Source: Perna viridis
Taxonomy: Eukaryota
Assembly: GCA_037379345.1 (NCBI GenBank)
Contig: CM074511.1
Coordinates: 49,296,862-49,360,861, forward strand
DNA: 64,000 nucleotides
Direction of reading: 5' to 3'
Part shown: in pieces, positions 34,626-37,108 of the stretch
Numbering within the stretch: the stretch's first letter is position 1
How the letters are laid out: each line of letters begins with the position of its first letter
Notes under the pieces: generated by a model
The model's input: the letters and a program-made list of their open reading frames with translations, nothing else
The model's database searches: none
What the model was told of the DNA's origin: nothing
Made by a program: the position numbers and the translations under genes

Positions 34626-35297
34626 AATCATGCATTACTTGATTATATGATTAAAGGTCCCTATTTACAAAATAAACAACACATAAAATGTAATAAATGA
34701 ACACATATATACAGAATAAAAACACATTCAATAAGACCAAACATAGCAATGTACCATTCTTCTGATGACAAACTGAATTATCTACTTATAATAAATTGGA
34801 TAAGTCTTTAAGGACATTTAAACATGAAAGGTAAAAACTTGCATCTAAATTAATCTGTTTATTAACTACAAAGTAACTAATTAATTTACATTGTACAGAG
34901 GTTTTTTGCCCTTTGCTTCAAAAATAAGGAACATAAAAGAAACAATACATTAGACAAATTTGATTAATTGATCTAGAATAATATTCTCTCTGAACTTGCA
35001 TCATACAAATGTGGACTAAGGGAAATAATTATTGTAACTTAATTGATTGGGTAAGTTAATTACTACAACCCTTGGCAGTGACAGGACATGACCACTGTGA
35101 CCTGACATGACTAACTGCTAACACAGCAGGAATGACCACATGTTTGACCTTTGACACCACAGGGTCAGGTTAACAGTGTAATAAAGATTATTACAGGATT
35201 ATCTGGAATCAAAGGATACAGCTGGAGTTTTAATCTGATAGATCATAATAATTAAAATGTTTTGGCTAAATAAAAAATAAAATCAGTAAAATTTTTG

Positions 35298-35800
35298 TTT
35301 GTTTGTTGGGGTTTAACGCCCGAGCAGCAATATTTCAGCTATATTCAGGCGATGAACATGAAGTGGATGAAAAAATGAACATGAAATGATGATGAAATGA
35401 AAAATGGGATGGGACACAAGGATAATGGGGTTGAGAAATTTTGATTGCCACTGGAGAGGTGGGTAGGGTCGGGCAATTTTGCCTCCTGTGGCGGAACCCT
35501 ATGGTTTCTACTTCGGGAGAATACCACAGTAGGGTTCTTTAACATGCGAGGAACATGGCATCTTTCCCAACATGGTGCAACACTATGGTTTGCGGTCAGG
35601 TTTTCCATATTATAGCCTGATAACCCCAGCATGTAACATGCAAGGGGTACCCCATTCCACAACCTGGGCAAAACCCAGTTGCTCTGTGGGCAGAGCGCCC
35701 TAGCCCCTAGCTAGATTTCTGAGCACTATTTAGTCGCCTTTTACGACAAGCTTAGCGCTGCTGCAGGCCTATTTTTTTTACACCCGGACCTGCACAGGGC
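35298..35800 (-). mobile_element. Full-length ~503-bp non-autonomous retroposon (SINE-like) with structured non-tRNA head and (CAAA)n tail
   Basis: 12-bp TSD gtaaaatttttg (35286-97) / gtaaaaattttg (35801-12). Minus-strand 3' end gctgaaatattgctgctcgggcgttaaaccccaacaaacaaac. The 5' part contains GCTTGTCGTAAAAGGCGACTAA. The element is GC/CpG-rich relative to its flanks. Confidence 0.85.
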
Positions 35801-37108
35801 GTAAAAATTTTGAGCATGGAGATAAAAATCAAACTAAAAATTAGGATAATACTGGCAACAGCTTTTCATAAAATATTACATTTATGAAAGAGTGAAATAT
35901 GCATTAACATGAGAGTAAGAAAATACAAATATCCAATTTTCATGCATTATTCGTTTAATGTATGATGAGACAGGAACATGTTATTCTTAATATTCCTCAA
36001 ACCATTAAATCCTGATTGATTTTCTCAACTTGTTTACAAGCTAGGCGATTGATTGGTGATCAGAAGATCTAAGGTCTAAAACTTTTATGAAAATGAACAG
36101 AGACAAGTGAAACATCAGACTGGGTAATAAATCGCAGCTGTTCTTTATCTTTTGTAAAGGACCATCATAAAAATGTGACAAAAAGACATTAGAAATTCTG
36201 GAATGTCAAAATCATATTATGTCGCCTTGCAGTGGTGTATTAGGCTGTATTGATTATGCGAAGATTCATAATTATCCTGTCCACGTGCCACTGGAAATTA
36301 AAAGCCTTATAAAGTCACGCTTCCACAAAAAGATAAATATGCGGGTTGAACTCGTACCCTTTCCCTGCATTGCTCCAAGCAAGTTATTTGAGTCTGCATG
36401 AATAATTGCATTGAGTCACAAGTGACAATAAATGAAAAATCGTTTGAAACCCTTAATAAGTTGTGCAATTATTGATATGAAACGGATTGGAAAAATTTTC
36501 ATCTGAAACCCTATACAAAGTCCATCTTGTAACTTAAACAACTGTCATTATTATAAAAATGCAAAAGTTGAAAAGTTGACATTTCATCTTAATCTTGATT
36601 GAATATGAAACCATTTGAGAGAGACTTTATAATTATGTCATATAAATAATCAATAGATCTGCATTGTCATGCACCTGAAGGGCATTGTTATTAAGTGCTT
36701 CAAGCGCTTATCATATTTCAATACAAAAAAAAGATATTAAAATGATTTTGAAATTAGCATTCTCAATAACAATGCTATAGAACAGTGACTTTAGTGTTGC
36801 CTCCGAGAGAGCTTTCAACATCCTGCAAAGTTTCATACACTTACATTTGGAAATTAATAAGAAATAAGAATCCATGGTGTGTTGCACAAAAGGGCTCTCG
36901 TACACAGCATTAAGGTGAAAGACCTAACAGATTTTCTATAATGCGACATAGAGAATTTGATTGATAAAAAAACAATTGTAAACTTCCTCATTGCTTCATG
37001 TTCACTCTATGTATCCAGAATGTATAATTGGTAAAAAATAACACTAGTCAAGTAATATTTGTATTTACCAATAATCCTTCAAACAAGGAAGATATAACTA
37101 ATTGTGAA

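Follow-up and report, generated by a model that had tools for sequence, protein, structure and literature searches.

How a SINE that lacks an RNA polymerase III (Pol III) head comes to have a precise 5' end is the question raised by a copy lying on the minus strand at positions 35298–35800 of the window, the 64,000-nt stretch of DNA analysed here. The copy is full-length (≈505-bp type) and ≈88–91% identical to its best other copies; as the earlier note had described, it is bounded by a TSD and closed by a (CAAA)n tail, and every feature listed in that note, stems included, was found again at its position. One TSD copy abuts the first base of the SINE (35801–35812) and the 3' copy lies at 35286–35297; the length of 12 bp previously reported was confirmed, but the copies are not perfect, one mismatch leaving 11 of the 12 positions identical. 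The tail (35298–35360, minus strand), a Nimb-type 3' stem-loop plus (CAAA)n, can be aligned with those of two Nimb-type LINEs (L308 and L297) and folds in a similar manner. The body segment at 35530–35610 (minus strand) is Nin-DC-like, carries the shared GCACGTTAAAGA-type motif and resembles, by eye and without an alignment tool, the Lottia_Nin and Tgr_1 rows in the part of the PMC4758252 supplement considered. A Meta-domain identity for this body is not supported. With no coding capacity, TSDs directly flanking it and 3' tandem repeats of (CAAA)n, the element has the properties of an LP-SINE.

No tRNA was predicted in the SINE by ARAGORN, and a search of the window copy's head with A- and B-box patterns, allowing up to one mismatch, found neither box, in agreement with their previously reported absence; a tRNA-derived SINE was thus rejected. 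Moreover, runs of T5–T9 occur inside the element. Pol III terminates at T runs, so that transcription by this polymerase through to the SINE tail would be unlikely. By its sequence, the head is the one published as 'LP' (LINE-promoter) or 'Nimb-17 homology' head (PMC4758252). According to the parts of that paper covering it, the first ≈70 bp of LP SINEs match the 5' ends of Nimb-17_LMi, I-3_DR and RTE-9_CPB, the head replaces the tRNA head in Saccostrea (Sgl_LP) and is shared by Nimb and RTE LINEs, and its promoter function is presumed, being called untested by the authors themselves; the same parts contain neither an RNA structure nor a viral occurrence. The window copy shares with the 'Nimb-17 homology' rows the C-run, GCAGG, AAGAA and CGTAAGAGGCGACTAA motifs (by eye), and with Sgl_LP the flanking TSDs, the tandem-repeat tail and the Nin-DC-like body (PMC4758252, same parts). 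The LINE-derived nature of the head is supported, and the window SINE adds a new member to the LP type; its family matched no named consensus in a comparison that did not extend to Repbase and Dfam.

The first ≈80 nt of the SINE are a conserved pseudoknot-plus-hairpin RNA module, with the order S1 (4–5 bp), U, S2 (≈7 bp), S1', a loop ending in AGAAUA, S2', X, U, GUCG-UAARAGG-CGAC, UAA and Y. In the window copy, where all the parts are on the minus strand, a G1-C2 overhang (35799–35800) precedes the 5' strand of S1 (35795–35798; CCUG here, CCCG in most copies), which pairs, as judged on 20 homologues, with the CGGG at 35783–35786 lying within the loop of S2, thus forming pseudoknot 1. Loop 1 is a single U crossing S2 (35794; U in 18 of the 20 homologues), and the 7-nt 5' strand of S2 (35787–35793) pairs with its 3' strand at 35763–35769, both supported by covariation. 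Loop 3 (35770–35782), of 8–18 nt among homologues and ≈60 nt in one family, ends in AAAAUA in the window copy, a G-to-A change in the conserved AGAAUA linker, whose G is kept in 95 of 103 copies. Directly after S2 comes stem X (35749–35762; AGC at 35762–35760, GCU at 35751–35749, with an A-A mismatch at the fourth pair), which was absent from the earlier note; the strand 35753–35758 in its loop can pair with 35722–35728 (Y), a possible second pseudoknot or alternative fold. A conserved U (35748), the hairpin P4 (35733–35747; GUCG-UAAAAGG-CGAC), invariant in the alignment, and the UAA linker with the 3' strand of Y (35722–35732) complete the shared module. Stacked together, S1 and S2 amount to 11–12 bp. 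The stem 1 of the earlier note is real but shorter than proposed (7 bp, 35793–35787 / 35769–35763), its outer U being the unpaired loop-1 base and its outer A the start of stem X; similarly, the CCCUG/CGGG pseudoknot proposed there does pair, as covariation indicates, over 4 bp only (35798–35795 / 35786–35783). The consecutive hairpins described further downstream are present in the fold, as four hairpins (35624–35715, minus strand); by eye they are not common to other families and are family-specific.

Taken alone, the fold of the 181-nt head region is only modestly better than those of shuffled sequences (z = −2.0; 7 of 200 shuffles as good), and the structural case therefore rests on comparison. 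Homologues were collected by pattern scans of metagenomes (at least 122 stretches), viral contigs and genome bins, and anchors were set by sequence alone: the AGAAU anchor was present in 102 of 140 hairpin occurrences and missing in 38, leading to 23 groups that are not fully independent, several being degraded relatives of one family. Stem X is paired in 58 of 69 cells against a permuted mean of 36.1 (0/20000) and, in the 15 groups with the 5' anchor (the S1/S2 anchor being missing in the other 8), the core of S2 is paired in 67 of 75 cells against 48.5 (0/20000); Y is weaker (91 against 81.3; 290/20000) and missing from three viral copies. In 20 homologues registered by hand, 76 of the 80 cells of S1 are paired and G-C/C-G swaps occur. 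RNAalifold, given 14 hand-picked non-viral copies aligned with MAFFT, predicted S2, X and P4 without guidance, 8 of 16 pairs having compensatory changes; 92.9% of the cells were paired in the 14 copies, compared with 27–49% in slid controls, and two of five shuffle measures on the 14-copy alignment were not significant (152/500 and 77/500). Even within this genome, a compensatory A-U to G-C change in S2 was observed in 3 of 103 copies. P4 shows no covariation, and its invariance is largely due to the search patterns selecting it; when its loop was left free in one viral scan, UAAGAGG, UAAAAGG or UAUGAGG was found in the 8 true hits out of 11. The claim that the head is a real pseudoknotted RNA is thus upheld, and an absence of covariation in the stems, named beforehand as the result that would speak against it, was not what the test returned. 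One metagenome family (L110, L117, L123, L126, L128, L144, L147, L164 and L189) retains AGAAUA, S2', X and the hairpin, and has only a long pyrimidine-rich tract, with no 5' strands of S1/S2, within 150 nt upstream; a very long loop 3 or a half-module are candidate readings of it.

The SINE is present in at least 11,000 copies in this genome: the hairpin motif of the head gave 11,022 exact matches genome-wide and the tail motif 13,494, with none for either reversed control. Forty arbitrarily placed 10-kb stretches held seven copies, starting at nt 1 (four of them), 5, 11 and 291. Among 73 tail-intact copies, met incidentally in the flanks of fetched loci, 35 start at nt 1–3 and the remainder are scattered singly without a second peak, about half of the copies being full length. 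The 5' ends of genomic copies, whose coincidence the earlier note had proposed to check, do coincide at the first base of the head; copies running further 5' into a tRNA head or a LINE body were looked for and not found. TSDs are present in 55 of 68 full-length copies examined (9–16 bp, with a peak at 13–14); those described for Nimb-2_DR in the part of PMC4245944 concerned are 12–13 bp long. At the junctions of the 55 copies with TSDs, 34 are flush despite varied flanks, 9 overlap, 10 have one extra base and 2 have 2–3 extra bases. No cap signature was seen at these junctions, the single extra base being C in five copies, A in four and G in one of the ten. The first base of the SINE is G in 69 of 82 copies, and A in 11 of 14 copies of another family. 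A or C precedes the first G in 64 of the 82 copies and is the single extra junction base in 9 of 10. Copies stand in dense clusters, one every few kb, at G000:C1:3.33–3.55 Mb and around Nimb LINE copies, and are also nested within LINE copies and within the SINE itself. Assembled contigs of four presumed RNA runs cover the SINE, with the head joined to varied flanks; such contigs do not resolve ends, strand or level.

The module was also searched for in other elements. TSDs flush with the head were observed in four SINE copies from other animal families (L280, L122, L099 and L133). An intact LINE of Nimb type with APE, RT and RNase H (L308) carries the module 0.4 kb upstream of ORF1, with a score of 72.5 bits in a covariance model whose training set included it. 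This LINE stands in a symbiont assembly (L282/L308, G001:C4:518900–525000), beside bacterial DsrE-family genes and with no TSD found, and is probably host DNA that got there by contamination or misassembly. Five matches in prokaryote collections were rejected as bacterial, having the look of animal DNA in bins; similar animal repeats in prokaryote bins were observed at L278–L281. No RT or endonuclease domain was found in 15 ORFs of at least 110 aa downstream of metagenome heads. No LINE with this head was found in the SINE's own genome, where the loci viewed for three variant patterns (30 of 134, 9 of 9 and 30 of 160) were all SINE mutants and protein searches returned only a LINE family with a different head. 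This Nimb family (L297:1347–7409, with copies L296, L298–L307 and L389–L400) is abundant and young, its copies being ≈97–99% alike; it encodes an ORF1 of ≈490 aa and an ORF2 of 1247 aa with APE, RT and RNase H, and its endonuclease domain is 45% identical to that of L308. A descriptor of our own for an HDV-like nested double pseudoknot is matched by its first ≈60 nt (and by 2 of 150 shuffles), which, with no Rfam match in the head, represent a candidate ribozyme. A 5' G is present in only some copies of this family.

A covariance model built from non-viral copies only was run on 64 viral loci; as these had been fetched with related patterns, the result is a confirmation of the full module and not a blind discovery. 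Eight loci scored 40–69 bits (E ≤ 8e-9), all with the full module; the next one was a hairpin-only match at 27 bits and the others remained below 19 bits. Seven of the eight are small contigs from six different viruses, with Pfam matches to RdRp in L194, L196, L197 and L199, of tombus-type RdRP_3 in three of the module-bearing contigs, and to capsid in L191, L192 and L198. In all seven the module lies on the coding (sense) strand, after the last ORF and 14–119 nt from the contig end. A further, diverged copy lies directly upstream of it in L197, in tandem (E 7.8e-6), and a partial one downstream in L191. Since the same virus-module junction is found in two samples (L192 and L198) and each virus has its own stem sequences, a chimeric assembly with host SINE RNA is disfavoured. 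The eighth locus is a 212-kb DNA-virus contig, with the module between two co-oriented genes, ≈150 nt before an ORF of 1046 codons. Relaxed viral scans gave no convincing further member, the extra loci scoring below 19 bits, and no match was found in phage records; L265/L276 (17.6 bits, antisense at an ORF junction) and L195/L200/L201 (chance matches inside a phage ORF) were rejected as members. Another structured-looking segment with no Rfam match lies upstream of both modules in L197 (4092–4210), and two IMG/VR contigs of 16–19 kb (L065 and L069) lack the 5' pseudoknot and have the invariant hairpin together with a Y-like pairing. Since no DNA stage exists in RNA viruses, the conserved bases they carry act as RNA. 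From the conservation of its fold and from its occurrence in the 3' UTRs of RNA viruses it follows that the module works as RNA.

What this RNA does is best explained, in our tentative view, by a block to 5'-3' exoribonucleases resembling that of xrRNAs, by which host transcripts would be trimmed to the start of the element; we regard this reading as possible but short of probable. A nuclease degrading, from its 5' end, a host read-through RNA with a sense copy of the SINE would come to a halt at S1. The RNA left over would have no cap, would start with the element's first base and would need no Pol III promoter; the reverse transcriptase of a Nimb-type LINE would then copy this uncapped RNA from its 3' stem-loop. 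In viruses, a short 3' fragment would be protected by this same fold. This explanation is favoured because it would account for both a precise start without Pol III promoter and survival of the viral 3' UTR. Covariation, precise 5' ends, T5–T9 runs, viral context, tandem copies and the lack of a cap signature were all counted in its favour. As described in the relevant part of PMC11702639, class 3 xrRNA halts Xrn1 at the base of its first stem, which fits the flush SINE junctions. The xrRNAs of classes 1–3 and coremin are likewise compact pseudoknotted viral 3' UTR elements, sometimes in tandem (PMC8374639, PMC11702639, PMC10321173, in the parts concerned), as flaviviral xrRNAs often are (PMC8374639) and as the module is in L197 and partly in L191. 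The module differs from classes 1–3 in having no three-way junction, no class 3 stem-loop layout and no Rfam match. Moreover, its secondary structure gives no evident ring around the 5' end, and the ≈60-nt loop 3 insertions of one family fit badly the fixed ring of 15–16 nt known from xrRNAs (PMC8374639, part concerned). Against the exonuclease block also count the anchors missing in 38 of 140 occurrences and 8 of 23 groups, the family-specific purine that most element families have as first base, as expected of a transcription start, the viral 3'-terminal position and helix order, which fit the TSS of TCV equally well, and the HDV-like fold found at the same place in a related Nimb LINE, which favours a ribozyme.

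The likeness to the TSS raises the possibility, somewhat unlikely in our opinion though a serious rival, that the module is a TSS-like, tRNA-shaped fold binding either ribosomes or some other host factor. In viruses it would serve as a 3' translation or replication element and in LINEs as a translation aid; SINE RNA would be parked, as Alu RNA is, on those ribosomes that make LINE protein, and the 5' end would come from an overlapping internal Pol II start. A binding surface is suggested by the single-stranded loop and the linkers, which are invariant, and a +1 purine is seen in the elements, not in the viruses. The helix order is that of the TCV TSS, with stacked pseudoknots H4a/psi3 and H4b/psi2 followed by hairpin H5; as in the TSS 3'CITEs of TCV, CCFV and PEMV2, an H-type pseudoknot, an adjacent hairpin with a downstream-pairing loop and a third hairpin occur in a 3'-proximal position in tombusvirids and tombus-like viruses (PMC5336357, PMC5712577, PMC9780821, in the parts concerned), consistently with the three module contigs with RdRP_3. 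Measured against three hairpins and two stacked pseudoknots, however, the first pseudoknot and both hairpins are supported and the second pseudoknot, the psi2-like pairing Y, is weak overall and optional. The third hairpin is invariant and, with the 15 nt of P4, far smaller than H5 (predicted at −21.8 kcal/mol; PMC5336357, part concerned), AGAAUA is conserved, and the module also stands at retrotransposon 5' ends; a TSS-like fold alone would give no account of a head replacing the tRNA promoter, as in Sgl_LP (PMC4758252, part concerned). Unlikely, too, is a new class of self-cleaving ribozyme that would cut just 5' of S1 and free the element from host co-transcripts, as HDV-like ribozymes release R2, RTE and L1Tc elements (PMC3383444, PMC6765202, PMC5786205, in the parts concerned). 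Flush ends with varied flanks would be expected of it, and the same-position HDV-like fold of the Nimb LINE in this very genome makes the two modules look interchangeable. The module shares with HDV-like ribozymes (R2, RTE, Baggins, L1Tc/NARTc Pr77) a length of ≈77 nt, a position exactly at the 5' terminus of LINEs, an occurrence also in their short derivatives and a CUAA after the hairpin (same papers), its position and size matching those of Pr77 (PMC3383444); the order X/Y/P4/CUAA is that of HDV P1/P2/P4/J4-2. An HDV-like ribozyme was nonetheless rejected, as the module has no P3, L3 or P1.1 and has an extra 5' H-type pseudoknot, and our own descriptor gave no match on L025 and L308 and a single match in the window that requires flanking TSD bases. 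That no known ribozyme class fits, as the earlier note had it, agrees with the Rfam scans, run at E ≤ 10 for the copy in the window, at E ≤ 5 for 15 homologous loci and at E ≤ 3 for 6 viral contigs, in which no ribozyme family, twister, twister-sister, pistol, hatchet and hammerhead included, was matched. Twister and pistol registers, tried by eye, were rejected for want of a conserved catalytic G and of an internal 5'-end peak, and internal cleavage is excluded as the main route, given that just 3 of the 73 tail-intact copies start at nt 61–85. What makes self-cleavage less likely is the sense module in linear RNA-virus 3' UTRs, where a cut 5' of it would sever the 3' end of six genomes.

The same viral 3'-end problem would be met by endonucleolytic cutting, and recruitment by the fold of an RNase P-like host endonuclease, or of the LINE protein itself, to complete 5' joining is very improbable. 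The 11–12 bp stack of S1 and S2, a P4 loop resembling a T-loop and the full length of about half of the copies would be in keeping with such recruitment. The R2 protein, moreover, binds a 5' pseudoknot (PMC6765202, part concerned); binding by LINE protein would leave unexplained both the viral copies and the sharing of the module between the RTE and Nimb clades. Least probable of all appears a DNA-level internal LINE promoter only, the published reading of LP, with an incidental RNA fold. [quoted passage not shown] A purely DNA-level promoter would explain neither the viral copies nor the covariation; a dual promoter-plus-RNA role, by analogy with Pr77, is possible.

The xrRNAs described so far were characterised only in viruses, according to the part of a 2021 review concerned with this (PMC8374639). 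Were the module to block Xrn1, it would represent the first case of an xrRNA carried by cellular genomes, with more than 11,000 copies in this one alone, and would replace promoter or ribozyme by carving SINE and LINE RNAs from host transcripts, a third way, beside these two, to define the start of a retrotransposon. If cleaving, it would be a new ribozyme class and, if ribosome-binding, a minimal TSS outside plant viruses; in every reading, one module is common to mobile DNA and several unrelated virus groups. We tentatively propose, at less than even confidence, that RNA viruses and animal retrotransposons have exchanged an RNA of a new class, exonuclease-blocking or else self-processing. 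The head is known as sequence (Matetovici et al. 2016, the only paper found on LP-SINEs), and its structure and viral presence are apparently new, with a fair chance of a new RNA class: the hairpin motif, in four spellings, had no match in literature full texts, and neither the fold nor its viral occurrence was found in literature listings, a search that left aside subscription journals, figures, Repbase and Dfam. Pan_3, a snail SINE listed with the Snail/Nin-domain families in the part of the PMC4758252 supplement considered, also begins with the module by eye, and two diverged heads stand in tandem at the start of one element (L105:1416–1507).
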